From NCBI GenBank assembly GCA_964554115.1, contig CAZKMT010000002.1, positions 26,629 through 90,628 of the forward strand: a stretch of DNA of 64,000 nucleotides, given 5' to 3'. Below, piece by piece: positions 8,924 to 38,700 of this stretch; the first letter of the stretch is position 1, and each line of letters begins with the position of its first letter. The DNA is from an uncultured Prevotella sp. GTDB taxonomy: Bacteria > Bacteroidota > Bacteroidia > Bacteroidales > Bacteroidaceae. The notes below the pieces were generated by a model, which saw only the letters and a list, made by a program, of their open reading frames with translations, was not told where the DNA came from and did no database searches. The position numbers were made by a program, and so were the translations under genes.

Positions 8924-9033
8924 AAAATGTGTCGTTTTAGCCTGCAAAACGCCCCGTTTCAGAGCGCGAAACAGGCCGTTTTGGCTCGCGAAATGGCCTG
9001 TTTCGCGAGCCAAAACGGCACAAGCCGAAAATC
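8924..9033. repeat. 22-bp-period quasi-palindromic array, copy A
   Basis: Units AAAATGTGTCGTTTTAGCCTGC / AAAACGCCCCGTTTCAGAGCGC / GAAACAGGCCGTTTTGGCTCGC / GAAATGGCCTGTTTCGCGAGCC / AAAACGGCAC...; 19-bp perfect inverted repeat 8975-8993/9001-9019. Confidence 0.85.
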
Positions 9034-12782: not shown

Positions 12783-14432
12783 CTATTTGGTCAGCCTTAT
12801 CCAATCCACGTCAAGGAAGCCCGACGGAGCTTTTCCGGCCGGCTCTTCGGCCAGGAATCCGAACTTAGCGCCAATCCATTTTCCTTCGCGCATTTGGAAC
12901 TCATCGCCTACCGTCTCAAACTTCTTTCCGTTCTTGCTGTATGCAAAAGACATCTTGGCTCCGTCCTTTACAACAAGCCTAAGATATATTTCCTCATATA
13001 TGGCAGGCTCGTAATCTACCTTGTCTCTGTCCGTGGGAGCCAATTCCGCGAGCACCTTTATTGTCTCCTGACTTCCCTTGTCGGCTTTCAGGCAGGTAAC
13101 TTGCTGAAGCTGGAACTTGTCGCCCACCCTTTTCACCACGAGTGCGCTGTAGTCCATTCCCATCATTATTATGCCGGCAAACTGCCCCTCTGCCTTTGCC
13201 GCAAACGTCATCTTTGCCGTGGCGGTGAATGCGTCTGCCGGTGTCTTTTGCAACAATAGGTTTGGAGCTTCCCACAGATTCACGAAGCCATCGCTCAGCT
13301 TGTTGGTGTAAAGCCGGTAGAATCCGTATGGCGTCGGCTGCCCGAAGCGCGCGTTGTAATTGGAATGCCACTGCCACTGCTTGCCCAGTTCAGGGGTGTT
13401 GAACTCATCGCTCTCCACAGGATTGCACACAGAGTATGTGGTTCCCACGTCCGGCTTCTTATGCCGTATCACCGGACTGCCGCACAAGTCGCCGTCATCG
13501 TCGACGCCAATCACAGGCCAGCCATCGACCCAATTCACCGGCTGCAGATGCACTACGCGCCCATACGCCCCCTTGTCTTGGAAGTGTATGAACCAATCTT
13601 CGCCCTGAGCCGTACGCACCAATCCACCCTGATGAGGGCCATTTATATCGGTATCGCCCTGCGCCATAACCATCTTGCACTCGTAAGGGCCGTAAGGATT
13701 ATCGGCACGCATAGCCAACTGCCATCCCGTAGGCACCCCACCCGCAGGAGCCAGAATCCAATACGTGCCATCAATCTTGTAAAACTTGGGACCCTCCACG
13801 GTACGGTTTTCATTGTTTCCATCAAACACTATCACAGGATTGCTTATCGCCTTGGTGCCATCGGCAGACAGTTCGCACACCGACAGTACGCTCTTGAATC
13901 CCGCACGGCTGCCGGCCCAGGCATGCACAAGATAGCACCTGCCGTCGTCATCCCACAGCGGCGTGGCATCAATCATGCCCTTGCCCTCAATCACCAGCAC
14001 CGGCTCTTCCCACTGACCGGCCGGGTCTTTGGTCTTCACCATGTAAATGCCATAGTCCGGATCGCCCCAATAGATGTAGTATTCACCATTGTGATACCTG
14101 ATGCTCGGAGCCCATACGCCCATGCCATGGGCAGCATTGTCAAACACCTCCTTGGGTTTCAGCTCCTTGAGGGCATGTCCGACAATTTCCCAGTTAACCA
14201 AGTCTTTCGAGTGAAGGACGGGCAATCCGGGGATGCAGTTGAACGAACTCGCCGTAAGATAGAAGTCTGTGCCCGATGCGCCCACACACACATCTGGGTC
14301 GCTATAGTCGGCATTGATGATGGGATTGGTGTAAGTGCCGTCGCCATTGTCCGGACACCACACCTCCGAACGGTATTGCGCCGCGGAAGCCATAGGCAAC
14401 GCAGCCATCAGCAGCAATAGGTGTAATTTCAT
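12783..14432 (-). CDS. Secreted glycoside hydrolase family 43 (beta-xylosidase/arabinofuranosidase-like) with C-terminal beta-sandwich
   Basis: TYTNPIINADYSDPD, WAPSIRYH, IDATPLWDDDG, VEGPKFYK, GPHQG; signal peptide. Confidence 0.93.
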   Translation of the reverse strand: MKLHLLLLMAALPMASAAQYRSEVWCPDNGDGTYTNPIINADYSDPDVCVGASGTDFYLTASSFNCIPGLPVLHSKDLVNWEIVGHALKELKPKEVFDNAAHGMGVWAPSIRYHNGEYYIYWGDPDYGIYMVKTKDPAGQWEEPVLVIEGKGMIDATPLWDDDGRCYLVHAWAGSRAGFKSVLSVCELSADGTKAISNPVIVFDGNNENRTVEGPKFYKIDGTYWILAPAGGVPTGWQLAMRADNPYGPYECKMVMAQGDTDINGPHQGGLVRTAQGEDWFIHFQDKGAYGRVVHLQPVNWVDGWPVIGVDDDGDLCGSPVIRHKKPDVGTTYSVCNPVESDEFNTPELGKQWQWHSNYNARFGQPTPYGFYRLYTNKLSDGFVNLWEAPNLLLQKTPADAFTATAKMTFAAKAEGQFAGIIMMGMDYSALVVKRVGDKFQLQQVTCLKADKGSQETIKVLAELAPTDRDKVDYEPAIYEEIYLRLVVKDGAKMSFAYSKNGKKFETVGDEFQMREGKWIGAKFGFLAEEPAGKAPSGFLDVDWIRLTK

Positions 14433-15493
14433 AATGGTTGTATTTTTAGTTTGTACTTATTGTTGTCAACTTCTATGCGCATCTCTCTCTTCGTCTGCCC
14501 GGAGGCAGGCGACAGAGCCAAGGCCACATGTCCCATGGTCCGGCGAAGGTTCACTTCCACGCACGGATGCAGCCGTGCTTCCCCTCCGTCACCGCAGACA
14601 ATCATCATGTCGATGCCTACCGGGCCTTCATACACGCCCTTACATGCCGAGCCGAGCGCAGCCATCGCCTTGGCTTTGACCTCATCCGCCAGCGTTGTGG
14701 CGACATGCCTGCCTATGATGCCGCGCTTCTCGCTTTCCGTCGCCAGCAGACTGCCGGTGTATGCCTGCCCTGCGGAGCGGAAAACGGAAAGGCCGCAATA
14801 GCTCACGTTTCCCGCGCCATCGCAAAGAAACTCCATTCCAAAGTCCATTGTTTTGCTATAATACGGCTCAACGGTCACGCTCCCCTGCTGCTTTAACATG
14901 TTTTTTATCCATCCGCTAACATTGGATTGGGCGGAATCAGCAGCCCCGATGAAGCGCACGCCACGGCCACTGCAACTCCAAGGAGCCTTTACCACTGCCT
15001 TGGGATTGGCCTCGATGAAGTCAAGCACTTCCGCACAGTCAGACAGACAATAGGCTTCGCCCACCGTACCGGGCAACCTCAAGGCACCCAACAGCGCAGA
15101 GGCAAAGCGCCTGTGCGACATTTCCCTGATGGCGGCAAGAGCGTCTGCGGACGGCAACAGCGATGGATTGACGCCCCCCGAGGCCAGCCTGTGGCGCAAG
15201 GCTCTGTCCCATCCCCACGGCTCTATGCCTGTTATGGGCAGTCCGCGCAGTTCTCTCTCCGTCACAAACAGTGGCATTGCCACATTTGCATCCGCAGAAT
15301 GCCTCAACTCCATTAACCCGCGCTCAGCCGCGTCCACATCGTCAACCAACACAGCATCGCCCTCGCCTGCCCACAACGCGGGCAGAAAGCCCAAGTCATG
15401 CCTGAGCCTCTTGGCAGCGTCAGGCGGGGTGAAGCCCTCCGTATTGGCAGCCAAGGCCATGTCGTGCTCCGGGTTAAATACGTGCAATGTCAT
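14429..15493 (-). CDS. ATP-grasp-like protein of unknown substrate
   Basis: Starts MTLHVFNPEHDMALA; VVKAPWSCSGRGV, VEPYY, PVGIDMM, CVEVNLRRTMG; -7 element at 15526-15533; ATGA overlap with GH43. Confidence 0.72.
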   Translation of the reverse strand: MTLHVFNPEHDMALAANTEGFTPPDAAKRLRHDLGFLPALWAGEGDAVLVDDVDAAERGLMELRHSADANVAMPLFVTERELRGLPITGIEPWGWDRALRHRLASGGVNPSLLPSADALAAIREMSHRRFASALLGALRLPGTVGEAYCLSDCAEVLDFIEANPKAVVKAPWSCSGRGVRFIGAADSAQSNVSGWIKNMLKQQGSVTVEPYYSKTMDFGMEFLCDGAGNVSYCGLSVFRSAGQAYTGSLLATESEKRGIIGRHVATTLADEVKAKAMAALGSACKGVYEGPVGIDMMIVCGDGGEARLHPCVEVNLRRTMGHVALALSPASGQTKREMRIEVDNNKYKLKIQPL

Positions 15494-15725
15494 TCCAAGC
15501 AAACTGTCCGAGACGTTTACGTCTGCAAAATTACACCATTCCATCCAAAAAGCAGACAACGCCACACACATTTTCTGCCGCAACGCCGCGGCACGGCAAC
15601 AGCGCACCAACGTCGGCTCGGGCGAAAGCGGACGTTCGGCGGAAAAGGAATGAATGTCCGCGATGTTCCCGACAAACCGTCCGCACCATTTTCTTGTGCA
15701 TCCGCCCTGCCGTGAAAGCCTGTTG

Positions 15726-15949
15726 TTTTGTAAAGATATTTCGCAGTGCAAACCGTCTTTCCGACGCATTCCCGCAACATCCCGCAAGCATTTGGTTTCC
15801 AGACGGTTTGCGACATGCGCCGTTTCACACCGCGAAATAGCCCGTTTCGGAGGGCGAAACAGGCCGTTTCATGCCGCGAAACGCACCGAATTGCAAGGCA
15901 AAACGGCACGCATGACGCCGCAGGCTCATGCTTTGTAAACATTATTTAC
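15726..15949. repeat. Dispersed ~224-bp intergenic element, copy B (22-bp array at 15812-15921)
   Basis: Reverse complement is collinear with 38393-38615; 21-nt exact terminal match CTGCGAAATATCTTTACAAAA. Confidence 0.85.
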
Positions 15950-16073
15950 CCGAAAAACGCAATTCATTTACATTCCCAATCATTGCTTACAGCCGCACAA
16001 AACACGCCCCGCCGGAAGCGGCGGACGCGCACAGCCAATCGAAAGATGCCGAACGACAGCGCAACGGATGGGG

Positions 16074-21501: not shown

Positions 21502-21819
21502 TACGCATGGCATGACAATATTTATTATATATATAAAATATTGGCTAACCGGAATAAGGATGATGCGGCACGGCTGTTTGCACATGAAGCCCTGGCATAA
21601 GCAAGTGACGGATGCAACGGCCAACCCTGACAGGAAGATGTGAGTTGTCACAGACGAAACGCACAAAGTGCTCTTTTTACGACTGACGGAAGCCTAAATG
21701 GTCACCCGCACAGGCGGAGTGACACAGCTTTTTGCCGTGCGTTGGCACGTCGCATCGCCGTGCGCGCAGACGACCGGCCGCCCATGAGGGAAACATACAA
21801 TCATATAAAATTACATACA

Positions 21820-24800
21820 ATGAAGAAAACATTTATCTTTACGTTGATGGCATCGGCCATGGTGGGTGCCGTCATTGCAGGAAACAACCGACCGGCCGAC
21901 ACGGCCACAGCGTTTCCAAGTGGCAACGGCGCGGAAAGCGCACAGACAACGCCGCTCGCCCTTGCTGACGGCACCGCCGACTCGCTGAGCGCGGTGCTCA
22001 CCGACGGGTCGCTGCCGCTCACCTTCCACAACGACGACACATATCCCTGGACAGTGGAAGACGGGTACATACAAAACGGGAACTACAACGTGAGAAACTC
22101 CGCCTCGGAGTTTTCCGCCACGTTCACCATCGAAAAGGCATCGAAATTCTCGTTTGACATGTACGTACACCGCAGCGACAATTCCACGAGCAGCAATACC
22201 TACCACTACCTGTACTTCTACATCAACGGCAAACAATACCTGTCGCAAAACAATCAGACGGACTGGGGTCGCACGTGTGTACTTCTGGAACCGGGCACAT
22301 ACACCCTCAACTGGGTGGACACCATCTCCAACTCATCAAACACCTACTACAGCCAAATTCGCAACATGGAGCTGTCGTCAGACTGGTTGGACGTGGAGCT
22401 GGCTTCACCCGGCACGCTCGGAGTGGAGGTGCTCTACAAGGTGGACGTGCTCACCGACGTGGAACTGCTCAAGGTCAAGGGCACACTTAACTCCACCGAC
22501 TGGACGAACCTAAAGCAGATGAGCAACCTCGTGGGCCTGGACCTCTCGGAAGCCTCGTTCGACGAAGTGCCCGAGTACGCATTCGACGGTCTGAACTACC
22601 TGTCGGGCGTGAAGCTGCCCGAGGGCATGACGTCCATCGGGCAGTATGCTTTCCGCAATACGCAGATATTAAACATCGAGATTCCTGCCTCCGTAACCTC
22701 CATCGGGCAATACGCCTTTGCAGGCACGCGCCTTGCCGGAATAACCTTTGCCGAAGGCTCCCGGCTCACCACCATAGGTTACAGTGCATTCAGAGAATGC
22801 TCCTCGCTTGAAGAATTTATAATGCCGAACACGGTGACAACATTGCAAACTTCTTCAAGCAGCTCATATACTTTCTATAACTGCACTTCGCTAAAGAAGC
22901 TGCATTTCTCCGATGCCTTGAAGACAATAAACCAAAACACTTGCTACGCATGCACCGCCCTTGAAGACTTGCACCTGCCCGACAGTCTCGAAACCATAAA
23001 TGCTTATGCTTTCTACAATACAACGTCGCTCCGCAAGGTGGACTTCCCGGAGACATTGCGGACAATAGAGTACAATGCGTTCGAATATTGCGGGGTTGAT
23101 TCCGTCAAACTGCCTGTAAAATTATCGTCTTTGGGTAATAATGCTTTTTATCGTTGCACTAACCTCAAATACGTGGAACTGCCGTCATACATAGAAAGCT
23201 ATAATTACAATTTCAGTAACTGCACAGCCATAGACAAGGTAGTGTGCCGCTCGGCAACGCCTCCGTCGGTCTCTAACGACCCGTTCAATGGCCTGTCAAA
23301 GAGCAACGCCACGCTCGTGGTGCCATCGTTCGCCGTTGTCAACTACAAGCTCGACACATACTGGTATCAGTTCGGCTCCATTGAGGAGGGCGACGACATC
23401 GACTACTGGAAGATAGCCGCCGCGCTGTCGCTCACCAACAACCGCCGCATGGAAGGCAAGCCCGACGTGGATCTCTACTTCGGAGGGCAGTTCACCGTGG
23501 GTGGCAACGCGCCGATGGAGACGGCACAGTTCAACATCTACATAAACGAATCCAACCCCGGACGACTGCTCAACGACTGCCCCGACTTCACGGCCGACAG
23601 CATCAACACCTACTATTCGGTCAGCGCCAACCAATGGTACTTCCTTACTCCCCTCCACGACGTAGACCTCTCGAAAGTGTCGCACAGCGCAGACGCCTCG
23701 TATGTGTTCCGTTACTATGACGGCGACAGCCGCGCCACCAACGGCACGGGCAACAGCTGGAAGAACGTGGAAGACGGATGGCTGCGCGCCGGGCAGGGGT
23801 ACATATTCCAGTGCAACGCCGCCGGCACCTTGACCCTGCCCGCCGAAGCCGAAGCCCATGCGCAAGTAGTGAACACTGAAGACGTGACCACGGCCCTCGC
23901 CACCCACGAGGCCACCTCATCGGCCAACAGGAGCTGGAACTACGTTGGCAATCCCTACCCCGCCTACTATGACGTATATTACATGGACTTCACCGCCCCC
24001 ATCACGGTGTGGACGGGCAGCACTTACAAGGCGTACTCCATCGTTGACGATAACTTCGTGCTGCGCCCCATGCAGCCGTTCTTCGTTCAGAAGCCGGATG
24101 CAGTCGACAACATAGTGTTCCACAAAGAGGGCAGACAGCTCACCTCTGAGGTGCAACGGGCATCGTATACCAAGAAGCTCGCAGCCGCAAGCTCCGACCG
24201 ACACATATTTAATATAACGATAAGCGGCGACGATGGACTGACCGACGAGACCCGTGTGGTGGTGAACGCCGATGCCGACAATGGCTATGAGATAGAACGC
24301 GATGCCGCCAAGTTCATGAGCATGGAGGAGGGCGTACCGCAAATATTCACCACCGACGCACAAGGCAACAGCTACGCCATCAACGAGAGACCGCTGGCCG
24401 ACGGCCGCGTGGCAGTGGGCTACAGCGCGGGCAACGCCGGCTTCTACACCATCAGCGCAACGCGCGCCGACGGCACGGTGACACTCACAGACGGTCTGCT
24501 CGGCAAGAGCGTCGACCTAACGTCGCAAGACTACACGTTCTACACCAACGCCACCGCCGGCACCAACCTGTCGCGTTTCTCCATCGTGATTGGAGTGAAC
24601 AGTTCGGAGACCACCGGCATAGACTCCGCCACAGACAACAACGCCGTGAGCGTGACCGGCGCGGCAGGGCGCATCGACATATCGGCTCACCACGGAGCTT
24701 CCGTAGCCATCTATGCGGCTGACGGCCGATGTGCCTACAGGGGCAGCATCGACGGCACGTCGTCAAGCATTGCCCTGCCCAAAGGCCTGTACATCGTGAA

Positions 24801-24837
24801 CGTCGATGGACACGTGGGTAAGACATTCGTTTATTAA
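21820..24837 (+). CDS. BspA-like (TpLRR) leucine-rich-repeat surface protein with T9SS CTD
   Basis: Signal peptide; repeats like LPEGMTSIGQYAF, IPASVTSIGQYAF, FPETLRTIEYNAF; SWNYVGNPY module; CTD ...LPKGLYIVNVDG. Confidence 0.88.
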   Translation: MKKTFIFTLMASAMVGAVIAGNNRPADTATAFPSGNGAESAQTTPLALADGTADSLSAVLTDGSLPLTFHNDDTYPWTVEDGYIQNGNYNVRNSASEFSATFTIEKASKFSFDMYVHRSDNSTSSNTYHYLYFYINGKQYLSQNNQTDWGRTCVLLEPGTYTLNWVDTISNSSNTYYSQIRNMELSSDWLDVELASPGTLGVEVLYKVDVLTDVELLKVKGTLNSTDWTNLKQMSNLVGLDLSEASFDEVPEYAFDGLNYLSGVKLPEGMTSIGQYAFRNTQILNIEIPASVTSIGQYAFAGTRLAGITFAEGSRLTTIGYSAFRECSSLEEFIMPNTVTTLQTSSSSSYTFYNCTSLKKLHFSDALKTINQNTCYACTALEDLHLPDSLETINAYAFYNTTSLRKVDFPETLRTIEYNAFEYCGVDSVKLPVKLSSLGNNAFYRCTNLKYVELPSYIESYNYNFSNCTAIDKVVCRSATPPSVSNDPFNGLSKSNATLVVPSFAVVNYKLDTYWYQFGSIEEGDDIDYWKIAAALSLTNNRRMEGKPDVDLYFGGQFTVGGNAPMETAQFNIYINESNPGRLLNDCPDFTADSINTYYSVSANQWYFLTPLHDVDLSKVSHSADASYVFRYYDGDSRATNGTGNSWKNVEDGWLRAGQGYIFQCNAAGTLTLPAEAEAHAQVVNTEDVTTALATHEATSSANRSWNYVGNPYPAYYDVYYMDFTAPITVWTGSTYKAYSIVDDNFVLRPMQPFFVQKPDAVDNIVFHKEGRQLTSEVQRASYTKKLAAASSDRHIFNITISGDDGLTDETRVVVNADADNGYEIERDAAKFMSMEEGVPQIFTTDAQGNSYAINERPLADGRVAVGYSAGNAGFYTISATRADGTVTLTDGLLGKSVDLTSQDYTFYTNATAGTNLSRFSIVIGVNSSETTGIDSATDNNAVSVTGAAGRIDISAHHGASVAIYAADGRCAYRGSIDGTSSSIALPKGLYIVNVDGHVGKTFVY

Positions 24838-24855
24838 TCCATAAAATCTTTCGCC

Positions 24856-27800
24856 ATGAGAGGTTTCAGATACTTACTCCTCATGCTGGCACTGGCCGTC
24901 AGTGCCGGCATGAGGGGGCAATACAACCCGACGAACCCTGCCGAGCCGGGCGTGTACTACACGCTTACGCTGCAGGCAACGCCGGCCAACGGTGGCAGCT
25001 TCAACATAGGCACCACCACTACCTACTCCGAAGGCACGAGCGTGTCGCTGCGCGCATACACAAACTCCAACTTCAAGTTTGTGGCTTGGGAGCAGGACGG
25101 AGAGGTGGTGTCGACGTCAAGCTCGTTCACATACATCATGCCGGCCCGCAATGTGACGCTCGTGGCGTGCTACGTCTACGACCCATCAAGTCCGGCAGAG
25201 CCGCCCGAACCCGACATTCCAGTGTATTCGCGGCTCACTCTCTCGGCCTCGCCCGCCGCCGGCGGCTACTTCAACATTTCGAGCGGCAACAGCTACGAGG
25301 TAGGCTCGCAAGTGAGCCTGCGGGCATACAACAACTCCAACTTCATGTTCGTAAGCTGGACGGAGGACGGGGAAGTGGTGTCAACGTCAAGCTCTTTTAC
25401 GTATGAGGTAACCGAAGGCGACCACCACCTTGTGGCCAACTTCAGCTACTCGCCGTCAAGTCCGGGCGAGCCATCGGAACCGCAGGTGCTCCACACCCTG
25501 CAACTGCAAAGCTCACCCGCCGACGGCGGTTACTTCAACACGTCGAGCGGCAACTCTTATGCGTCGGGGACATCGGTGTATTTGCGGGCTTATTCCAACC
25601 AGTGGTACACGTTTGATAATTGGACATGCAACGGCGAGGTGGTGTCAACAGCCGCCAGCTTCTATTTCACCATGCCCGATGCCAACGTCACGCTCGTGGC
25701 CAACTTCACATACAACTACGACCCGAGCAATCCGAGTGAGCCGAGCGAACCGTCGAACGGCAATGTGAACATTTACGGAATGACGGAAAACGGCGCAAGG
25801 GGGCAGGCCATAGCCTATCCCATCTACCTTGAGAATCCGGTAGACATCACCGGCATGGCGGTAGACATACAGTTTCCGGATGGCTTCGCCGTGGACGCAG
25901 ACAACGTGCAGCTGGCCGGACGCGCCACCGGACACGAGATGACCGTCAGCGGCCTCGACTCCAACACATACCGCTTCGTGCTTCTCGGCACGACTAATTT
26001 CGACGGCAACAACGGGAAAGTGTTTGACGTGATGGTGACCATCCCAGACACGGCCACCACGAACCACAACTACCCCGTGACGCTTTCGCACGGCGTGGCA
26101 CACACCGTAGACGGCAACCAAGAAGCCGTGTCGGCGCGCAGCGGATATATATATGTGGAACAGCCGTCGGAAGACGGACTCTATGCGCGCTTCTCTTACG
26201 ACAAACTGTTGGGGAGGGTGCAGTTTACCAACCTGTCATCGGAAAAGGCACTGCGCTATGAGTGGGATTTCGGCGATGGCACCACGAGCACCGAAGACAG
26301 TCCGCTGCACACCTACGGCACGCCGGGCTATTATGACGTGACGCTGACGGCCTACGGAGAGTATGGCGAAGACGCGGCCACAACGACAGTGCTCATCAAC
26401 GACAGCGCGTATTGGACTGTCGGCGGAACATTCATACTTGCCAACGAGATGAGGGGCGTGCGCTACTTCGACACAGTCGATTCGCTGCTGGCCTTTGTGT
26501 CGGCAGCCACATTGGCCGACAACATCACGCTCATGGTGGAGGCGGAATCATCTTTCCCGCTCGCCATGACCGACACAAACAAGCACAGGCTGGCCGCCTT
26601 GGCTGAGGAAATGGCAACGCAATCGCTGTCGCTGAACATCTCGAAGACAGGCGAAGGTGCCAACCCGACGATAGCTTTCGGCGACAGCGGCGACGAACTG
26701 ACAGCGGAACATATCGAACTGTACAACAAACTGGGTGCATCGGCCACGTGCTACGGTGTCACGACCAAGCTGTGCGGCATCGAATACAACCCTGCCATGA
26801 TAAATGCCATTGCCGACCAGACCGTAAACTCGGGTGTGCCCACGGCGGAAATTGATTTCTCGCCCATCAGCAATGATCTCACTTTCGCATGGACACTGAC
26901 CACCACGCCCGATGAGGAAGCCGTGACGGGCTACAAAATGTCGGGCGAGGGAAACATACCGTCAATGACAATAGACAACATCGGCGAAGAGGATGCCGTG
27001 TTCACTTACATGATATCGGCATCCCATGACAGCCTGACATTCTGCGAGTTCAGCCGTTCAATAACGGTGAGGCCGGGCAGCGCGATACTGGAGCAGGCCG
27101 AGTGGGATCTGCTGAACACCCTGCGCGAGGTGCTCGTTGACGGCGGGTGGCAAGAGCCGTGGGACATGACATGCGGACCGGAAGGCGCATCCACACTGCG
27201 TGGCGTGACCGTGGAGCGTGGCCACGTGACGGGCATCGACCTCTCAAGTGAGAGCATCGGCGGAGGCTTCCCCACCGTGGCCCTGCAACTTCCACGCCTC
27301 GTCACACTGTCGATGGCCGACAACGACATGACCGGCGACGTGGCGAAAGACATATTGCAAGACATGACCATATACACCGCCGCCAACCCCGGATTCAAGT
27401 CAACGCTGCGCAGCATCGACATATCGGGCAACGACTTTACAGGCAACATAGGGTTGCTGTCCGCATTGTCGTCTGTATTCGCCGACCTTGAGGAACTGGT
27501 GGTGAGCGGCAACGCCGTATGCGAAGTGTCGCCGGCACTGCCGCCATCAATCACAAGGCTCGACCTGACGGGACAACGCACCGACAGCATGATAAGCGTA
27601 GACTTGGTGAACTTCGACTTCGAGGCCGTGGCGGCGCAGTTGCCGTCCATAATGCTTTATGACCACGGCGCACAGGCGTACATGGACACGCCAATGCTGA
27701 GACTCACCAACCGCCAGCCCGGAGAGACGGGAGCACAAGACGGCTATTGGGGCATGGACATCGATGCCACGACGGGAGAGCCCGTGCTTGCCGCCATAAG

Positions 27801-28587
27801 CACAAACGCCTACGAGGGACAAAGCGGCGACACGGTGTTCGTGTCGTATCCTTGCGCAGCAACTGAAGTGGCCGACTGCCATTGCCTTGCCACCATCAAC
27901 TTTGAGCCAGGCGATGCCAACTTCATCGGGGGCGTGACAGCCGCCGACCTTCAGGCAACCATACTCTACGCTTTCGGCGATTACACAGGCAGGCCATTCA
28001 ATCTGACAGCCGCCGACACGTACACCGATGGGACAATAAACGTGCAAGACGTGGTATGCACGGTTGACATACTCCTCTCCGCAACCTCGGGCGACAGCGA
28101 AACCATGCGAAATGTCCAAAAAACGAAAGTCGGTGCAACGACCTCTTCGGCCACCGAAGCCGATGCCTGCATCTACATAGACAACGGAAACGTGATTCTC
28201 AAATCGCCCGTCCCGGTGGCTGCAATCAGCGTCACTGCCTCCGGCAACATTTCATGGACGCTGGACAACTACGGCATGGCGCAGGCTTCGGCAGGCGCGA
28301 ACCTCGTGGGCTACTCACTGACGGGGCATACCATCCCGGCGGGAACTGCCGTGATAGGCTCATGCCGTGGCGAAGCCGCGATACGCAGCACCACGCTGGC
28401 CGATGTGCAAGCCATGCCAATAAGCGTCTCGGTTGGCGAATCCACGCCGACATCCATTGACGGCGTGCAGACAGAATACGGCGGATTGCGCATATTCAAC
28501 ATGAACGGAGTGGAAGTGAACGGTCTGCAAAAGGGTGTGAACATCATACGGAAAGACGGACGTTCCATAAAGGTGATAAACAAATAA
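24856..28587 (+). CDS. Multidomain T9SS surface protein: 3 InlB-B-like repeats, cohesin-like, PKD, LRR, dockerin-like, CTD
   Basis: Repeats flanked by YxPxxPxEP; PKD WDFGDG; LRR IDISGNDFTG; dockerin GDAN...ADTYTDGTINVQDV; CTD IFNMNG...KGVNIIR. Confidence 0.82.
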   Translation: MRGFRYLLLMLALAVSAGMRGQYNPTNPAEPGVYYTLTLQATPANGGSFNIGTTTTYSEGTSVSLRAYTNSNFKFVAWEQDGEVVSTSSSFTYIMPARNVTLVACYVYDPSSPAEPPEPDIPVYSRLTLSASPAAGGYFNISSGNSYEVGSQVSLRAYNNSNFMFVSWTEDGEVVSTSSSFTYEVTEGDHHLVANFSYSPSSPGEPSEPQVLHTLQLQSSPADGGYFNTSSGNSYASGTSVYLRAYSNQWYTFDNWTCNGEVVSTAASFYFTMPDANVTLVANFTYNYDPSNPSEPSEPSNGNVNIYGMTENGARGQAIAYPIYLENPVDITGMAVDIQFPDGFAVDADNVQLAGRATGHEMTVSGLDSNTYRFVLLGTTNFDGNNGKVFDVMVTIPDTATTNHNYPVTLSHGVAHTVDGNQEAVSARSGYIYVEQPSEDGLYARFSYDKLLGRVQFTNLSSEKALRYEWDFGDGTTSTEDSPLHTYGTPGYYDVTLTAYGEYGEDAATTTVLINDSAYWTVGGTFILANEMRGVRYFDTVDSLLAFVSAATLADNITLMVEAESSFPLAMTDTNKHRLAALAEEMATQSLSLNISKTGEGANPTIAFGDSGDELTAEHIELYNKLGASATCYGVTTKLCGIEYNPAMINAIADQTVNSGVPTAEIDFSPISNDLTFAWTLTTTPDEEAVTGYKMSGEGNIPSMTIDNIGEEDAVFTYMISASHDSLTFCEFSRSITVRPGSAILEQAEWDLLNTLREVLVDGGWQEPWDMTCGPEGASTLRGVTVERGHVTGIDLSSESIGGGFPTVALQLPRLVTLSMADNDMTGDVAKDILQDMTIYTAANPGFKSTLRSIDISGNDFTGNIGLLSALSSVFADLEELVVSGNAVCEVSPALPPSITRLDLTGQRTDSMISVDLVNFDFEAVAAQLPSIMLYDHGAQAYMDTPMLRLTNRQPGETGAQDGYWGMDIDATTGEPVLAAISTNAYEGQSGDTVFVSYPCAATEVADCHCLATINFEPGDANFIGGVTAADLQATILYAFGDYTGRPFNLTAADTYTDGTINVQDVVCTVDILLSATSGDSETMRNVQKTKVGATTSSATEADACIYIDNGNVILKSPVPVAAISVTASGNISWTLDNYGMAQASAGANLVGYSLTGHTIPAGTAVIGSCRGEAAIRSTTLADVQAMPISVSVGESTPTSIDGVQTEYGGLRIFNMNGVEVNGLQKGVNIIRKDGRSIKVINK

Positions 28588-28600
28588 ACCACAAAGCATT

Positions 28601-31600
28601 ATGCAAACAAGACTTTTGATGACAACGATATGCGCCATATCACTGAGCGTGATGGCAGCCTTTGCGCAGGGCAACACACTGTCTGTGCCCGACGTGTCGG
28701 TGGCGCAAGGCCGCACAATCGACTTGCCAATAAACATGGACAACACTTCCGACGTGGTGGCCGTGCAGTTCACGCTATTCGTTCCGGAGGGAATAACTAT
28801 CGACCCTTCGTCTGCCGCAGTGTCAGAACGTGCCGAAAGCCACACCGTGACAATGAAAAAGGTGGATGCCAACGAATACATGGCAATGGTGTTCTCGGCA
28901 GACAACAGCGTCATTACGGGACGCACGGGAAAGCTGATAACCGCCAAACTCACGGCTGCTACAGACATGTATGAAGGCACTGAGCTGCAGTTTGTGCTCA
29001 AGGACGTGATACTCAGCGCACGCGACGGGTCAAACATCGTCTCCGGATACAGTGCCGGCAAGATAACAATCACAAAAACAGCCGACCTCGAAGTATCGGA
29101 CGTGAAAGTCAATGCCACTTCCGTCACTCCCGGCGGCACACTGCCGGTGTCATGGCAGGTAAGCAATGTAGGGCAGGTGGCCACAGATGCCGGATGGAGC
29201 GAGCGGGTGTTCCTTGACGCTCCCAACGGGACATCTAAACTGATTGGCACAATATACTATACCGATATCTTGTCGGCAGGCGGCACCGTTAGCCGCTCTG
29301 CGGAGCTGACCGTGCCACAACAGTTGGGCATCAACGGCGAGGCGACCGTGAGGGTCAAGCTCTCTCCGGCCAGTGACACAGGCGAGCCCTCATGGATGCT
29401 GGCCAACAACGAAGCTTCGGCACCGACATCAATATCCGTGCGCAAGGAACTTGTGCTATCGCCGGAAACCATTCGTGTGGACGAAGAGGCGCAAACGGTG
29501 CGTTTCAAGCTCTCCAGGACGGGGAGCACCGCCTCAAAAGAAACATTCACCGTACAACCATCGACAGACAACAGGGTGACGCTGCCATCATCGGTAACCA
29601 TACCATCGGGACAGTCGAGCGCTTATTTCACAGCCTCCATCACACCGAACGCCGTCATCGACGCCGACTCTGTTGTGGCCGTGGCCATCTCGGGAGACGA
29701 CTATCCGACCGTGGAAGGACGCATAGTGATTGACGATGACACGAAGCCTGCGCTCTCCTTGTCGTCAGAAGCGCAAGATGTCACCGAGGGCGGAAGCCTG
29801 ACGCTCACCATATCCACACAAAAAGCAGTAAGTGAAAACACCGAGATACTGCTGTCGTGCGACTATCCGACACGCTTCAGCCTGCCCTCATCGGTAGTAA
29901 TCCAGGAGGGCAGTGCAAGCGTGGAAGCCACGGTAAACGCCATCGACGATGACAATCCCGATGTGGAACAAGTGGTTACTTTCACCGTCTCTGCCGCAGG
30001 CTACGAGTCAGCATCCATGCTTACTACGCTCGTTGACAATGACATTCCCACGCTACAGATAGAGCTGGAGCCTTCCGCCATATCGGAATCGGCCGGCCCG
30101 ATAGCCGTTACGGCAAGGATATGGCGCACGGACAACACCGACCGCAAGGTGACAATAAACCTATACGATGACTCCGATGGTTGCATATATTACCTGTCGC
30201 AGTCTGTCGAGATGGCCGCCGGACAGACTGAGGTCACTGTGAACCTGGGGCCCATCGACAATAACGACGTTGACGGCGAACGCACATACAACGTCTCAGC
30301 CGCCGTCTACATAGCGTCGTGCAGTTGCAACGCCGGCGGCGGCACGGCAGGGGGAGCGGTCAGTGCGCCGCTTACCGTATATGACGATGATGGCCCCGCC
30401 CTCGCCTTGGCAGCATCATCGTCAGCCATTGGCGAGGGTGGCGAACTGACAGTGACCGTAAGCCGCAATACTGACACGTCATCGCCTCTTGACGTTGCTT
30501 TCGTAAGTGACCACGATGACGGCATCGACTATCCCCGGTCAATTACCATACCCGCAGGCCAATCATCGGCATCCGTGGCAGTAAGCGCAGTCAACAACGC
30601 GGTAACGGGCGATGGGTTCGTGGCCACGTTAACCGCATCGGCCGAGGGGCACTCCAAAGCTACCGTGATGTTCTCTGTAAGCGACAAGACGCTTCCTGAC
30701 GCACAGATTACATCTTTTGACGTTGCGGAAAACGAAGTTGAGGCCGGCGGCACTGTCACTGTAACGCTGACATTGGCAAACACAGGCTCTTACGAACTTC
30801 CGGAGATGACAAAGACAGGCATATATGTAAACTCTGAAACAACGCCTACAGCCGTCATCTACCTCCAGTCGCCACTCGCGGCCGGACAGTCCGTACAGCT
30901 CAACCGTGAGATAACGCTGCCCTCGTCCGTCGGAACGCACCGTATCTACGCCGTCGCAAACGATGGGCATGGCGTAAACGAACTCCTTTATACCAACAAC
31001 AATTCTACCGTGGCGCAAGTGCAGGCATTGTCGCCGTTTGCAGCAACGGCCTCCACCGACAAGGCTGTCTACGAAAAAGGTGAGGAAGTGCATATATCAG
31101 GCAGTATAAGCGGCGGAGATGTGGCTGACAAGAGTGTCGAAGTTTACGTCATAAATGATGGCTACCGCCACACAATCAACACAACAACCGATGCAAACGG
31201 TGCCTTTGCCGTTGCCTACACACCATTTGCCGCACAAGTCGGACACTTCGATGTGGGTGCATGTTATCCCGGCGAAGGCACGACTGATGCCCTATGCTCG
31301 TTCGACATCTACGGCATGGAGCTCGCCAACACGGGTTACGTCACTGTGGAAACCGTGCCGGGCGAGCCTTATTCCGGCACCATTAAAGTCACCAACCGTG
31401 GTAGATTGCCATTGACTGGCATCAGAGCCACTGTGACGGGACAGCCCGACAATTGCGACGTGCAACTGACATGCCCCGAGACAATCGGCGGTGGGCAGGA
31501 CTTTGCAATCGACTATGTGATTACCGGAAGCGAGCCAAGCGCGGGCACCGATTGGGAATTGATAACCCTCAACATAGAGTCGGCCGAAGCCCCGGCCATA

Positions 31601-34600
31601 GAAGCCACTGTCTATTATTATTGCCGCAGCCAAAGTGGAAAACTGCTTGCCGACGTGCAGAGCATAAACACCACCATGACAAAGGGGCAGACGCGCAACT
31701 ACCCAATCACCATCACCAACATAGGCAAGGGTGAAACGGGAACCATCACCGTGACGCTGCCCGATGGCGGATGGATGAAGACGGCAACGCCTGTGGAGAT
31801 GCCATCGCTCGCAACCGGCGAGACGGCAACGGTGACACTCCTTTTGACTCCCACAGAGAGCCAGTCGCTCAACGTGCCAGTCACGGGCAGGCTCGGCATC
31901 AACTGCGCCAACGGGGATGGCATTCCCATCCAATTCTGCATCACACCGGTGTCTGAGGCCACAGGCACATTGGTTGTCGATGCATGCGATGAGTGGACAT
32001 ACAACACCACCAACGGCCCGCACGTGGCCGGTGCGGAAGTCACCGTAAAGGATGTCAGCACCGGAGCCGTGGTGACGAGCGGCGCCACGGACGCCGATGG
32101 CCTATTCACCGTAGAGCTGCCCGAAGGCTATTACGCCCTCAGCGTGACGGCCGACAAGCACGACTCTTACTCCAACAACATCCTCGTAGACCCCGGCACA
32201 ACTACGCGAGAGGTGGCACTCCTCAGCTATCAGGCCATACAGATAGGCTATGAGCTGGTAGAGACAGAGATATCCGATGAATACATCATTGAAAACATCG
32301 TGACATTCGAAACCAATGTGCCAAAGCCCGTGGTGGTGATTGACGGCCCAAGCAGCATCGACGGCGAAGCGATGGCCGATGGCGAGCAGGCCGTGCTCTA
32401 CTTCACGTTGACAAACCACGGCCTCGTCCGCTCCGACAATGTTCGCTTCTATTTGCCCGAGCCAACCGACGAGTGGCTCTTCGAAGCCCTCGACTACACG
32501 GAGTCGTTCTCTCTCGGCCCCAACCAGAGCGTAACCATTCCCGTGCTCCTCACTCACTATCCCGCATCCTCGCATTCATCTTTAAAGGCTTCAGGGCAGG
32601 CCACGTTACAGGTTAACGTAATGGAGGCGTGCATGGCTCACATAGAAGCGTTGTACGAAGTGATTTGCGGCACGCGCCTATATGACAATGAGGCTGCCCA
32701 CCGCATGTCAATGAAAGCCTGTGCCACATCGGCCATAATGAATGCCATCGGGCAGGGACTCTCCGGAGTCATAAGCGGCGGTTCGGGCGGCGGTGGTGGA
32801 GGCAATGGCGGGCCGACAAGCCCGACATCTCCGACAAACAACAAAGTTGATCCCGAAGATGTTCAACATCCGATAGAATCCACCAACGAAACCACATTCT
32901 GCGATTCATGTTACACCCAGTTAATGGAGAACCACCTGAACCAAATCATTGACCATGTGCCTATACTGGGAGCCTTAAACAGTCTGTTAGACGCCATGTA
33001 CGAGCACACCAGGTATGGCACATCGTGGGGTGAGCTTCTGGCCAGATACATTATTGAAAACTATGAGGACTTCTTCCCCGATGAAGAGCCGGAAGACCTT
33101 CTCGGACTGCTCAATAGCCATCTCAACGACCTCATCGGTGACTTGAGAACCTTAGCAGAAAACATGGAGAATTACGAGGAATGCCTGCGGTCGCGAAACG
33201 GGGAGCAGGCCGATGTGCAGCGTTACGCCGGCGAAACGGGCAACAGTTGGATAAACGCGCTTGCCGATGCAGCCGCGTCGTTCAGCGAAGAGGCGGAAAC
33301 GCTACAGGTCATGATGCAAGAACTGTGCGGCGACTCCGTATGGTTAACAAGCTCTGATGCCTCCATGCATAATTTCTGGCAGGCCGTAAGCGAGGCGGAT
33401 GCCGACGCTCCGCTCAATGCTGACACGCTCATGTCCGTCAAGCCAGAATCTGTCACGGAGGCACAGTTGCGCGCACTCGTAGAGCGGCTCAACGGTACTT
33501 CGCCCGACAACGTGCCCGACGACGAGCTGTTGCAGACCTGCGCCGACAGGATAACGGAGATAGAGACAGCGGCCATCGAAGCTGGTTATGAGTCGATGGA
33601 GGACAAGTTCTACAGTGCTTACGACAACTTCAACGCAAGGGGCGAAGAGGAGTCAAGCTCCGTGTGCTCGTCAATCACGCTGCGTTTCGAGCAGCGCATG
33701 GTCATGACGCGCCAGGCTTTCCGCGGCACGCTCACGGTCTACAACGGAAACACAGACACCCCCATGACCGATGTGGTGCTGTCATTGCGCGTAAGTGACA
33801 CCGATGGTGCCATAGCCACGTCGCACGAGTTCCAGATAAGCCTTGAGACGCTCAACGGGTTCTCCGGCGATGCCGCGCTCGGAAGCGCATGGCAATTGGA
33901 TGCCGAAGCCAGCGGTTGCGCCACAATCCTCTACATCCCCACCAAGTATGCCGCGCCCACTGAGGCCAAGGAATACGTGTTCAGTGGCACGCTCTCTTAT
34001 GTTGACCCATACAGCGGACAGGCCGTTACGCGCGACATCTATCCCATAACGCTCACCGTCAAGCCGTCGCCCAACCTCAACTTGACGTATTTCATGCAGC
34101 GCGACGTGATGGGCGACGACCCGCTCACCGAAGAGATAGAGCCGAGCGAGGATGCCGAGTTTGCCTTGCTCATAAACAATGTGGGCTATGGCGATGCCAA
34201 CAACGTGCAGATAGTGACCAACCAGCCTGAGATAATAGACAATGAGAAAGGCCTGCTCATCGACTTCGAGCTTGTGAGCAGCCAGCTCAACGGAGGCGAC
34301 AAGGTGTTGGCGTTGGGCGGCAGCGTGGCCACCGACTTCGGCGACATAGCTGCCGGAAGCCAGGTCTACGCCCAATGGTGGCTACGAAGCTCGTTGCTGG
34401 GGCACTTCACCGACTATGATGTCAGCGTCACCCACGTCACGAGCTACGGCAACCCCGACCTGTCTCTGCTCAATGAGGTTACCGTCCACGAACTCATACG
34501 CAGCCTTGAGGCTGGCGATGGCGACCTCGTGGGCTTCATGACCAACGACATAGAAGACATCAACGACTATCCCGACATGCTCTACCTCTCCGATGGCAGC

Positions 34601-36715
34601 GTAGAGACTGTGGCCGCAGTCGGCTCATCGTCCATCGCCAAGGTGTCCGACACGGAATATACGCTCACTGTCAGTCCGTCGTCCCTTGGGTGGAACTACG
34701 GCAACATCACCGACCCCACCTATGGACTGTCCGAACTCGTGGCGGTGACGCGCAACAGCGATGGCAAGACCGTAAGCCTGCGCAATTTCTGGCAGACCGA
34801 CCGCACACTGCGCGACGGCAAGGATCCGCTTTACGAAAACCGCCTCCACTTTGCCGACGACTTCGGGAGCCTCACACCCCAGACCTACACGCTTACGTTT
34901 GAGCCTGCGCCGACCCTCGTGCTCGCCGTGGCCTCGATAGACGGCGTACCCTCCGGCGTGGCGTTCGAGCCTGTGGCCTATGTAGACGTGATGTTCAACA
35001 AAACCATCGCCCCCGCCACATTCACCACTGACGACATAACCATATCCGTCGAGGGCGTGCGGCAGGACGTTTCAACGGTAGACATCTCAACCGATGACAA
35101 CAAGACGTTCAGGCTCGACCTATCGCGCTTCAACGACACTGTCGGCAATGGCTACTATACCCTCACGGTGCAGACGGCAAACATAACCGACGCCGAAGGC
35201 TTCAATGGCAGCAGTGGCAAGTCGGTGGGCTGGTCGCTCTTCCTCGGTGGATTTGTAAGGCTCTCAACGGATGTAACGCCGGCCGAGGCCGGCACAATTA
35301 TGACAGCCGCCGGGGCTTCCGCCACTGCCCTGTCAGAGCCGGCACAGGCGGAGAGCGAGGCCGAGTATGGCTCCACCGTCACGCTCATGGCAGTGCCCGC
35401 AGAGGGCTACGCTTTCTCTTACTGGACCGTCAATGACGTGGAAGTTGACTCCGGAGCAACAATCACCAATGTCGTCATCGGCGACATGGACGTGGTGGCA
35501 AACTTCGTGCCCACACAGCATACCGTGACGATTACATCATCCGATGGCGGAGGCACCGTGACCGGCGACTATGGCGGCATTTATCAATATGGCGAACAGC
35601 TATCGTTCACGGCCATGCCGGATGCCGACCATGCCTTTGTCTGCTGGACCGTCAACGGCGACACCGTGGACAATGCCACCGACACGCTTGCCGTGACCGT
35701 AAACGCCGACATGTACATAGACGCCTCGTTTGTGCGCCGGGTGTACAGCCAGCGGCTGTCGCTTTTCCAAGGCTGGAACTGGATATCATCCTATTTATCC
35801 GAGCCTCTGGCCACCGACGCTTTCACGTATGCCTCGCGCATATTAGGACGCGCAGACAATGGAGCGACAGATGCCGGCGGCATCGACCTCGACACAGACT
35901 CGCTGACTCCCGGCTGCGGCTATAAGGTTGAGGCCACACTGCCTTTCGTACTGTCGTTCAGTGGCACCATGTATGATGCAACTGCCGCGCCCATCGTTGT
36001 GGCGGCGGGCTGGAACTGGTTGCCGTGCCCATATTCCGAGGCCGCCACGCTGTCGTCGGCCATCGTCAATGCCGACGATGGCGATGTCATCGCATCGCAG
36101 GCCGGCTTCGCCGAGTATGACGGGGGCACGTGGACGGGCACGATCTCAACTCTTGAGCCGGGCAGTGCCTATCTCTACAAGTCTGCAACAGACAAGACCC
36201 TTGAGTTCAGCAGTGCCCCAACGGCACCCCTGCCGGGCGGCGGCACGTCGGCACCCCAGGCTTACATGCGCCAGTATCCCGCAACAATGAACATTACGGC
36301 GTGTCTCTACCGCAACGATGCGCCGCTTGAGGGCGATGGTTTCAGCATAACCGCCATGGTTGACGGCGAGCAGCGCGGAGTGAGCCAAGCCATCGACGGC
36401 AAGCATTACATCACGGTCTATGGCGACGCGCCGGCCACAGTGTCGTTCGTGATAGAGGATGTGGCCACCGGCGAGACGTTCACCTCCGCCACTATGCCCG
36501 CTTTCTGCGACGACGTACTGGGCTGCATCGCATCTCCCTATGCCATAAGCATTGGCGAAGCAACATCAATCGCCGATGCCATCGGCAGCGGGCGCAAGGT
36601 AAGGGTGTACACCATCCAAGGCTTGCTCGTCACATCTGAGGCCACTCGCGAGACTCTCGAGCGGCTGCCGCGTGGTGTCTATATCATCGACAACCGCAAA
36701 TACGTGGTGAAATAG
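28601..36715 (+). CDS. 2704-aa T9SS surface protein: cohesin-like N-terminus, CARDB and Ig-like domains, carboxypeptidase-regulatory-like domain, helical insert, InlB-B-like repeats, CTD
   Basis: Signal peptide AAFA|Q; LPINMDNTSDVVAVQFTL; ADLEVSDV...VSWQVSNVG; YAVANDG...ELLYTNN; CTD VYTIQG...LPRGVYIIDNRKYVVK. Confidence 0.82.
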   Translation: MQTRLLMTTICAISLSVMAAFAQGNTLSVPDVSVAQGRTIDLPINMDNTSDVVAVQFTLFVPEGITIDPSSAAVSERAESHTVTMKKVDANEYMAMVFSADNSVITGRTGKLITAKLTAATDMYEGTELQFVLKDVILSARDGSNIVSGYSAGKITITKTADLEVSDVKVNATSVTPGGTLPVSWQVSNVGQVATDAGWSERVFLDAPNGTSKLIGTIYYTDILSAGGTVSRSAELTVPQQLGINGEATVRVKLSPASDTGEPSWMLANNEASAPTSISVRKELVLSPETIRVDEEAQTVRFKLSRTGSTASKETFTVQPSTDNRVTLPSSVTIPSGQSSAYFTASITPNAVIDADSVVAVAISGDDYPTVEGRIVIDDDTKPALSLSSEAQDVTEGGSLTLTISTQKAVSENTEILLSCDYPTRFSLPSSVVIQEGSASVEATVNAIDDDNPDVEQVVTFTVSAAGYESASMLTTLVDNDIPTLQIELEPSAISESAGPIAVTARIWRTDNTDRKVTINLYDDSDGCIYYLSQSVEMAAGQTEVTVNLGPIDNNDVDGERTYNVSAAVYIASCSCNAGGGTAGGAVSAPLTVYDDDGPALALAASSSAIGEGGELTVTVSRNTDTSSPLDVAFVSDHDDGIDYPRSITIPAGQSSASVAVSAVNNAVTGDGFVATLTASAEGHSKATVMFSVSDKTLPDAQITSFDVAENEVEAGGTVTVTLTLANTGSYELPEMTKTGIYVNSETTPTAVIYLQSPLAAGQSVQLNREITLPSSVGTHRIYAVANDGHGVNELLYTNNNSTVAQVQALSPFAATASTDKAVYEKGEEVHISGSISGGDVADKSVEVYVINDGYRHTINTTTDANGAFAVAYTPFAAQVGHFDVGACYPGEGTTDALCSFDIYGMELANTGYVTVETVPGEPYSGTIKVTNRGRLPLTGIRATVTGQPDNCDVQLTCPETIGGGQDFAIDYVITGSEPSAGTDWELITLNIESAEAPAIEATVYYYCRSQSGKLLADVQSINTTMTKGQTRNYPITITNIGKGETGTITVTLPDGGWMKTATPVEMPSLATGETATVTLLLTPTESQSLNVPVTGRLGINCANGDGIPIQFCITPVSEATGTLVVDACDEWTYNTTNGPHVAGAEVTVKDVSTGAVVTSGATDADGLFTVELPEGYYALSVTADKHDSYSNNILVDPGTTTREVALLSYQAIQIGYELVETEISDEYIIENIVTFETNVPKPVVVIDGPSSIDGEAMADGEQAVLYFTLTNHGLVRSDNVRFYLPEPTDEWLFEALDYTESFSLGPNQSVTIPVLLTHYPASSHSSLKASGQATLQVNVMEACMAHIEALYEVICGTRLYDNEAAHRMSMKACATSAIMNAIGQGLSGVISGGSGGGGGGNGGPTSPTSPTNNKVDPEDVQHPIESTNETTFCDSCYTQLMENHLNQIIDHVPILGALNSLLDAMYEHTRYGTSWGELLARYIIENYEDFFPDEEPEDLLGLLNSHLNDLIGDLRTLAENMENYEECLRSRNGEQADVQRYAGETGNSWINALADAAASFSEEAETLQVMMQELCGDSVWLTSSDASMHNFWQAVSEADADAPLNADTLMSVKPESVTEAQLRALVERLNGTSPDNVPDDELLQTCADRITEIETAAIEAGYESMEDKFYSAYDNFNARGEEESSSVCSSITLRFEQRMVMTRQAFRGTLTVYNGNTDTPMTDVVLSLRVSDTDGAIATSHEFQISLETLNGFSGDAALGSAWQLDAEASGCATILYIPTKYAAPTEAKEYVFSGTLSYVDPYSGQAVTRDIYPITLTVKPSPNLNLTYFMQRDVMGDDPLTEEIEPSEDAEFALLINNVGYGDANNVQIVTNQPEIIDNEKGLLIDFELVSSQLNGGDKVLALGGSVATDFGDIAAGSQVYAQWWLRSSLLGHFTDYDVSVTHVTSYGNPDLSLLNEVTVHELIRSLEAGDGDLVGFMTNDIEDINDYPDMLYLSDGSVETVAAVGSSSIAKVSDTEYTLTVSPSSLGWNYGNITDPTYGLSELVAVTRNSDGKTVSLRNFWQTDRTLRDGKDPLYENRLHFADDFGSLTPQTYTLTFEPAPTLVLAVASIDGVPSGVAFEPVAYVDVMFNKTIAPATFTTDDITISVEGVRQDVSTVDISTDDNKTFRLDLSRFNDTVGNGYYTLTVQTANITDAEGFNGSSGKSVGWSLFLGGFVRLSTDVTPAEAGTIMTAAGASATALSEPAQAESEAEYGSTVTLMAVPAEGYAFSYWTVNDVEVDSGATITNVVIGDMDVVANFVPTQHTVTITSSDGGGTVTGDYGGIYQYGEQLSFTAMPDADHAFVCWTVNGDTVDNATDTLAVTVNADMYIDASFVRRVYSQRLSLFQGWNWISSYLSEPLATDAFTYASRILGRADNGATDAGGIDLDTDSLTPGCGYKVEATLPFVLSFSGTMYDATAAPIVVAAGWNWLPCPYSEAATLSSAIVNADDGDVIASQAGFAEYDGGTWTGTISTLEPGSAYLYKSATDKTLEFSSAPTAPLPGGGTSAPQAYMRQYPATMNITACLYRNDAPLEGDGFSITAMVDGEQRGVSQAIDGKHYITVYGDAPATVSFVIEDVATGETFTSATMPAFCDDVLGCIASPYAISIGEATSIADAIGSGRKVRVYTIQGLLVTSEATRETLERLPRGVYIIDNRKYVVK

Positions 36716-38319: not shown

Positions 38320-38392
38320 CGCCGGGCAGGAAAGAAAGCCGCACTGCGGAATTGCCGCTCCGTAGCACTGCATCGGCAGGGCTGCCGCAACA

Positions 38393-38615: not shown

Positions 38616-38700
38616 AAGCATCAGAATGCGGTGACATGGCGGGGCATCGCAAGGCTACTTCCGGATTTGCCGCAGCCACAGTGGCTGCGGCATGAGGGCA

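Follow-up and report, generated by a model that had tools for sequence, protein, structure and literature searches.

Arrays with a period of 22 nt

The window, i.e., the whole 64-kb stretch of Prevotella DNA analyzed here, contains four intergenic arrays with a strict period of 22 nt, which are located at positions 8925 to 9020 (array A), 15812 to 15921 (array B), 38437 to 38529 (array C), and 49585 to 49672 (array D). All four lie outside credible genes: array A is flanked by uvrB and a DUF4468 gene, array B by an unannotated ORF and an M24 aminopeptidase gene, array C by metY and an M23 peptidase gene, and array D by gdhA and an ABC transporter gene. The label metY is used for a gene encoding a PLP enzyme of Cys/Met metabolism, which forms a convergent pair with the M23 peptidase gene. 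The period of 22 nt makes an in-frame protein repeat impossible. With at most one mismatch allowed, the motif CGTTT-N8-RAAA-N5-CGTTT matches the window 16 times, compared with 0.02 matches expected by chance from dinucleotide-preserving shuffles, and all 16 matches fall within four clusters (8925 to 9017, 15821 to 15883, 38451 to 38521, and 49597 to 49645). Tandem Repeats Finder also gives a period of 22 at 15820 to 15882 and 49596 to 49667. The 22-nt register that a preliminary description had reported for the four arrays is confirmed by this count, and the excess of such arrays over shuffled DNA is found within the window.

The arrays differ in the regularity of their units. In array B, to which the preliminary description was devoted, CGTTT is located at 15821, 15843, and 15865, followed by a degenerate CGAAT at 15887; successive 22-nt units read CCGTTTCACACCGCGAAATAGC, CCGTTTCGGAGGGCGAAACAGG, CCGTTTCATGCCGCGAAACGCA, and so on, and the end units are degenerate. 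Array A has four cores, with tail-like motifs on both sides, and its segments 8975 to 8993 and 9001 to 9019 form a perfect hairpin of 19 to 20 bp. Array D consists of three variant units of the form GCGATAYGG-N-CCGTTT, in which the A-tract is interrupted and the A-tract half-site reads GATAYGG, and it has neither leader nor tail. The earlier statement that each array holds four to five units is thus correct for the exact period, but array B has three clean units plus degenerate ends and array D three variant ones. The short motif GACGGTTTG occurs three times around array B (15748 to 15758, 15801 to 15811, and near 15683), and these copies may be degenerate half-units outside the array.

A logo built from 350 units of many genomes reads AAACG-gnc-CGTTT-yGCannGCr, with which the earlier consensus, (G/A)AAA-N5-CGTTT-N6-GC, agrees. 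The unit is a 19-nt palindrome followed by 3 nt. Successive same-strand copies of CGTTT or AAACG in the arrays of many genomes are exactly 22 nt apart in 201 of about 225 cases, and most of the other distances are 44 or 66 nt. Measured from start to start, AAACG is followed by CGTTT after 8 nt and CGTTT by AAACG after 14 nt, so that the two half-sites form an alternating chain with one half-site about every 11 bp and two dyad centers per unit. The centers of the A- and T-tracts are approximately 10 to 12 bp apart, which bears out the alternation of the two tracts at about 11 bp that had been noted for the array.

The number of units is confined to a narrow range, with three or four in 52 of 57 arrays and a maximum of six. 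The triplet at the center of the palindrome varies by species: it is GNC in the window and in P. lacticifex, TGC or GCA in the metagenome-assembled genome (MAG) E24__bin252, and CAC in the MAG HGM04944. The arrays of HGM04944 (L031:4898-4998, L044:2116-2194, and L112:5499-5577) are nearly perfect direct tandem repeats (GCAAAACGCACCGTTTTAGAAT) without a global dyad, which suggests recent duplication or homogenization of units, unlike the mosaic arrays elsewhere.

Modules of the full-length element

Array B is the core of a modular element of approximately 220 bp, which extends from 15726 to 15950 on the minus strand and in which the four units are preceded by a leader box and followed by a conserved tail and a second box. 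The preliminary description had treated the array as the feature; the array is real, but the conserved leader, tail, and terminal boxes around it had been overlooked. The leader and box 1 of element B occupy 15922 to 15950 (GTAAATAATGTTTACAAAG), with TnTTTACAA starting at 15941, and element C and eight copies of P. lacticifex carry this module ahead of their arrays. The tail module of element B (15775 to 15816, minus strand) is a weak version of GYAAC-N3-yTGR-N3-5-yCAr-N4-GTTAC, a module found behind the array in 32 of the 45 copies, from several species, to which an orientation could be assigned. Box 2 (15726 to 15746, minus strand) has the sequence CTGCGAAATATCTTTACAAAA, and this exact 21-mer is also present at 38595 to 38615 on the plus strand, in element C. 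Downstream of element B, the minus-strand ORF at 14429 to 15571 has no Pfam match; its start is likely the in-frame ATG at 15571 and not the TTG at 15787, which overlaps the element.

Element C (38396 to 38612, plus strand) is a second full-length copy and lies between convergent genes. Its box 1 is near 38391 to 38414, its array at 38437 to 38529 contains a perfect hairpin of 16 bp, its tail is at 38526 to 38567, and its box 2 is at 38595 to 38615. Copies B and C, which are on opposite strands, thus have the 21-mer in common approximately 66 nt past the array, and both carry a similar box, aat[g/c]TTTACAA, approximately 25 nt ahead of it.

The eight copies of P. lacticifex JCM 34664 align with one another, and their borders are sharp. 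They are arranged in the order of box 1 (GAAATAtnTTTACA), a leader of about 20 nt, four units, the tail (catGtaTt..TAA....cTGAtaaTCA.....ttaCAaaG), about 25 variable nt, and box 2 (TGAAtTAttTTTACAT). An nhmmer model built from this alignment matches element B over its full length (15946 to 15728, minus strand, E = 4e-19) and element C over model positions 4 to 196 (E = 1e-29), while its match to arrays A and D is restricted to the array part. At two P. lacticifex loci, L024 and L029, similar sequence is also present upstream of box 1, which suggests a larger segmental duplication rather than an independent insertion.

The sequence TnTTTACAA has four occurrences in the 64-kb window, all of them at the ends of elements B and C, and the boxes are thus element-specific terminal direct repeats. 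They resemble promoters, yet they differ from the generic Bacteroidota -7 box, which reportedly reads TAnnTTTG (Bayley et al. 2000). A generic-promoter reading of the boxes is weakened by the -7 boxes of the genes, which are TAnnTTTG, and by the confinement of TnTTTACAA to the element ends.

The region that separates element C from the M23 peptidase gene, which has its 3' end on this side, contains two further hairpins, namely, a near-perfect palindrome of 25 nt at 38668 to 38692 (gccgcagccacagtggctgcggc) and a GC-rich hairpin at approximately 38724 to 38750 (aggcctccgc...gcggaggcct); both are probably ordinary terminators. Elsewhere in the window, three very large ORFs follow one another at 21640 to 36715 (1065, 1243, and 2704 amino acids); with their BspA-type leucine-rich repeats, InlB B-repeat-like domains, and PKD domains, they look like a surface-protein cluster.

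Distribution and genomic placement

A scan of a species-genome collection with a two-unit pattern gave at least 113 loci. Among the matches listed, multi-unit arrays occur almost only in Prevotella, the matches in other phyla being single chance matches, and the array-bearing genomes include P. lacticifex and, from gut and rumen, the MAGs E24__bin252, BRZ_QA__bin92, BRZ_MT__bin52, HGM04944, HGM04908, and SRP313737_co1_76, among others. In the uvrB and gdhA regions, the window is approximately 80% identical in nucleotide sequence to two of the listed array loci and therefore represents a further Prevotella-like species. When metagenomes were scanned with metY, 80 orthologous loci were obtained, and only in the two closest (86% amino acid identity) is metY followed by an array; the other 78 (at most 81% identity, about 550 kb) contain none except for a marginal model match of 19.9 bits in L151. 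The family is thus limited to a sub-clade.

Arrays occur about once per 16 to 22 kb in the window and in the loci of E24__bin252, and k-mers of the arrays reach 10 to 27 times the depth of the flanks in rumen DNA runs, in line with the earlier expectation of many arrays per genome. A second short stretch near the P. lacticifex element at L019 (7188 to 7275) has two to four times the flank depth in these runs and represents another repeat. Short-read assemblies break at every copy of the element.

The tail allowed 45 copies to be oriented, and every one of them is intergenic. The gene-orientation classes count 13, 12, 9, and 6 copies, so that every class is occupied, and the gene ends that face the element are 3' ends in 45 cases and 5' ends in 40. 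Clustering of the neighboring genes revealed no gene family that recurs beside the arrays, and the annotated neighbors are housekeeping genes. In E24__bin252, a gene for a predicted AAA-ATPase that also contains a PD-(D/E)XK nuclease domain (PF09820 and PF08011) has arrays on both sides (L111:2267-4514), and a homologue adjoins an array in HGM04944 (L031:4870-6312), which may be a coincidence. In the gdhA region, the array is upstream of gdhA in the window but downstream of the neighboring gene in HGM04944 (L112). No match to the element was found in plasmid and phage collections, and our literature search found no description of this kind of Prevotella repeat.

Nature of the element and its possible role

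We consider it very probable that the element represents a family of non-coding interspersed repeats of the BIME, BOX, or BrickBuilt kind. The closest published analogue is BrickBuilt of Porphyromonas gingivalis (Klein et al. 2015, PMC4596501), which consists of a leader, 23-nt tandem repeats, and a tail, is always intergenic with about 19 copies, and has promoter activity; because the published sequence is given as logos only, sequence similarity is not comparable. Both families are hosted by Bacteroidales, both combine a leader, tandem repeats of about 22 to 23 nt, and a tail, and both are found between unrelated genes in tens of copies with a restricted host range, including copies with a partial leader or tail. 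On the other hand, the ends of BrickBuilt are IS5-like terminal inverted repeats, its copies contain from 1 to 22.8 tandem repeats, and indels occur inside these (PMC4596501), whereas the Prevotella element has no inverted ends, keeps a strict 22-nt phase with usually four palindromic units, and is bounded by boxes in direct repeat.

REP and BIME sequences, which enterobacteria and Pseudomonas carry along with RAYT transposases (PMC2817692), are likewise high-copy extragenic palindromic units in regular clusters with mixed or alternating orientation, and neither they nor the Prevotella element have inverted ends or target duplications. The Prevotella units are short, extragenic palindromes of high copy number, with the 19-nt palindrome and the array k-mer depth of 10 to 27 times the flank given above. 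The E. coli BIME variants RIP and RIB carry an IHF site, to which the IHF-consensus-like motif in the tail is a parallel. The Prevotella unit is shorter, however, its logo contains no GTAG or GTGG tetranucleotide tag at the 5' end, and it exhibits no bias toward gene 3' ends and no sign of compensatory stem evolution. The BOX element of Streptococcus pneumoniae, as generally known, has the same three-part plan with a repeated middle, boxA-(boxB)n-boxC, and is also intergenic and multi-copy; by its description it is set apart by its phylum, its 45-nt boxB, and its inverted-repeat ends.

Several other candidates do not fit. A CRISPR array is rejected, as the preliminary description had proposed, because the unit is 22 nt with only 9 variable positions and the neighbors are housekeeping genes, compared with repeats of 24 to 48 nt, spacers of 26 to 72 nt, and cas genes. 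Operators of the parS, LacI, and FNR types have a half-site spacing that does not match. Iterons, the ParR centromeres of R1 parC and pSK41, and OxyR-type operators with four half-sites are generally known as same-face repeats of 10 to 11 or 20 to 22 bp that are bound cooperatively, and by analogy the Prevotella array may work like such phased sites. They stand beside their own rep, par, or target genes with one or a few per replicon, in contrast to the many Prevotella sites with housekeeping neighbors; a plasmid iteron or centromere as such is rejected, given that the four sites of the window lie beside uvrB, the M24 peptidase gene, metY, and gdhA and that the plasmid collection has no match.

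Each array of the window is predicted to form a long hairpin on at least one strand (z-scores of -3.4 to -6.1), and several copies of the family, among them arrays A and C, have perfect stems of 16 to 20 bp and fold z-scores of -5 to -6. Contigs from rumen RNA libraries traverse the P. lacticifex element together with its flanks, and for P. lacticifex and the window taken together, every second full-length copy is flanked by convergent genes. These features would suit a function of the hairpins in RNA or single-stranded DNA, the arrays being clustered stem-loops, co-transcribed with the genes next to them, that act as bidirectional terminators or 3'-end stabilizers, as proposed for REP and BIME, but we regard such a role as improbable. 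The fold energy does not differ between the sense and antisense strands (21 versus 24 copies, Wilcoxon p = 0.64), and G-T mismatches, which correspond to G-U pairs, are as frequent as A-C mismatches, which leaves no strand-specific wobble-pair signal. Complementarity between spacers is the same within an array as between arrays (4.0 of 9 positions) apart from a modest lag-3 effect, and covariation is observed in the outermost spacer pair only (69 Watson-Crick pairs versus 52 expected). The tail dyad pairs at 61% of positions versus 63% in shuffles, and RNAalifold gave no structure for 32 tails, in which a dyad of 11 bp drawn by hand lacks covariation as well. Missing covariation in the half-site arms is uninformative because the arms are almost invariant. 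Since the strands and mismatch types are equal and neither the spacers nor the tail exhibit compensatory change, it is the half-site sequence and the helical phase that are conserved, not the pairing. The hairpin role is further opposed by the plain direct repeats of HGM04944, by the orientation of the element, which faces the 5' and 3' ends of genes equally often and is present in divergent promoter regions, and by Rfam, in which there was nothing at the gathering score for the whole window and nothing up to E = 10 for 15650 to 16000. The RNA contigs are undirected and broken at the repeat and could include DNA; one run described as metatranscriptomic WGS behaves like DNA. The lack of a strand-specific structure signal and of an Rfam match also counts against small-RNA genes, in which box 1 would be a -7-type promoter of a structured RNA of about 170 nt that extends to near box 2. 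Although the boxes resemble TAnnTTTG and are placed at fixed distances from the array, in an element with a defined polarity from leader to array to tail, they read TAnnTTTA, while the genes of the window that have a -7 box use TAnnTTTG. The restriction of TnTTTACAA to the four ends of elements B and C, the lack of a conserved -33 element upstream of box 1, and the absence of the boxes from arrays A and D and from most copies in other species make small-RNA genes a very unlikely explanation.

A purely selfish, non-autonomous mobile element, such as a MITE, a REP/RAYT-type element, or a miniature att cassette whose units are sites of a transposase or recombinase, would explain why the family is multi-copy, confined to one clade, purely intergenic, and different in position between species, as in the gdhA case. 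Species-specific core triplets would be expected from co-evolution with a partner protein or from recent amplification, and BrickBuilt, the closest analogue, has been classed as a MITE (PMC4596501). The terminal direct repeats TnTTTACA, absent elsewhere in the window, loosely recall the att sites of Bacteroides CTnDOT, in which the core ends in TTTGC, arm-type sites are present, and E. coli IHF can replace the host factor (PMC2817482). The parallel of the boxes, array, and tail to these sites is loose, and we consider it speculative; both element ends share TTTACA(A). Against an element of this kind, the eight-copy alignment of P. lacticifex contains no terminal inverted repeats, its ends being direct repeats of TnTTTACA, and no copy-specific target-site duplication; box 1 and box 2 conform to separate consensus sequences, outside of which the copies are unrelated. 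The copies of a single genome have diverged from one another. Strain comparisons were made on P. lacticifex loci because no contig with an identical metY protein and no run with the window DNA was available; at L080, L019, and L001, in four to six rumen samples, the element was always present, and the contigs contained no empty-site joint. Neither a transposase nor an integrase is located beside any array at approximately 60 loci or among the 30 of about 40 window ORFs scanned with Pfam, and no RAYT (Y1 transposase) was found among the array-flanking genes and ORFs of the window that were scanned; the plasmid and phage collections gave no match, as noted above. A family that is multi-copy, clade-limited, and at non-orthologous positions must have spread once, and we infer that it spread in the past and is now static, with no sign of current movement. 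A purely selfish element is, in our judgment, unlikely; the mobile, hairpin, and small-RNA readings overlap in part with one another and with that of a protein docking site.

The curvature of the arrays was calculated as a DNA path by a wedge model, the values of which are indicative only. Array A has a predicted bend of 81 degrees per 100 bp (top 0.5% of the window segments) and array B one of 58 degrees per 100 bp (top 4% of the 100-bp window segments), while arrays C and D have ordinary bend values with no predicted curvature. Among 55 arrays of other genomes, 71% are in the top 5% of their local windows by the same model. The intrinsic curvature suggested in the preliminary description is thus predicted for arrays A and B and for most arrays of other genomes but not for C and D. 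Together with its second suggestion, a row of same-face sites for a dimeric protein, curvature is favored by the sequence statistics, in which RNA-type asymmetry and covariation are lacking, and both readings have the standing of predictions. In the tail, 12 of 56 arrays have WATCARNNNNTTR, the IHF consensus, at a distance of 10 to 24 nt from their end, versus about 0.5 expected; this consensus is that of E. coli and may not fit Bacteroidota proteins, and the match is a lead and not a demonstration.

We propose, at an evenly balanced level of confidence, that the element is maintained in its double-stranded form and provides a putative protein with a phased, bent array of docking sites. The full element measures approximately 200 to 220 bp. 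A box TnTTTACA and a leader of about 20 to 25 nt precede the 22-bp units, of which there are usually four; behind them come a conserved tail of about 40 nt, in which a dyad motif and the IHF-consensus-like ATCAA-N4-TTR are found, and a further box that is oriented like the first. The AAACG and CGTTT half-sites, alternating every 11 bp or so, all lie on roughly one face of the helix, and on this intrinsically bent, phased stack of dyad half-sites a putative DNA-binding protein may assemble cooperatively. Candidates for this protein are a nucleoid-associated protein, a recombinase, or a domesticated transposase, possibly together with an IHF/HU-type protein at the tail. A more specific form of the proposal, which we offer only tentatively, is that the arrays are chromosomal docking sites of a lineage-specific protein that polymerizes on the phased half-sites, with a tail bend by an IHF/HU-type protein, at an extrapolated 100 to 200 intergenic sites.

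Prevotella and its relatives are dominant in many gut and rumen communities, and to our knowledge their non-coding DNA is almost unexplored. In one sub-clade, the family described here accounts for a measurable part of the DNA between genes. The exact period of two helical turns, the constrained number of units, the species-specific centers, and the absence of an RNA-type signal make the docking hypothesis testable in the cultured P. lacticifex JCM 34664. If the bent double-stranded DNA is indeed recognized by a protein, the family would be a bacterial interspersed repeat that has been selected for helical phase instead of hairpin formation; if not, it is a useful new REP/BOX/MITE-like entry in the catalogue of such repeats and a lineage marker. 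If the more specific proposal of a polymerizing, lineage-specific protein is true, the arrays would represent either a clade-restricted system of chromosome organization or global regulation or a domesticated recombinase and its sites, with protein and sites co-evolving in each species by way of the central triplet.
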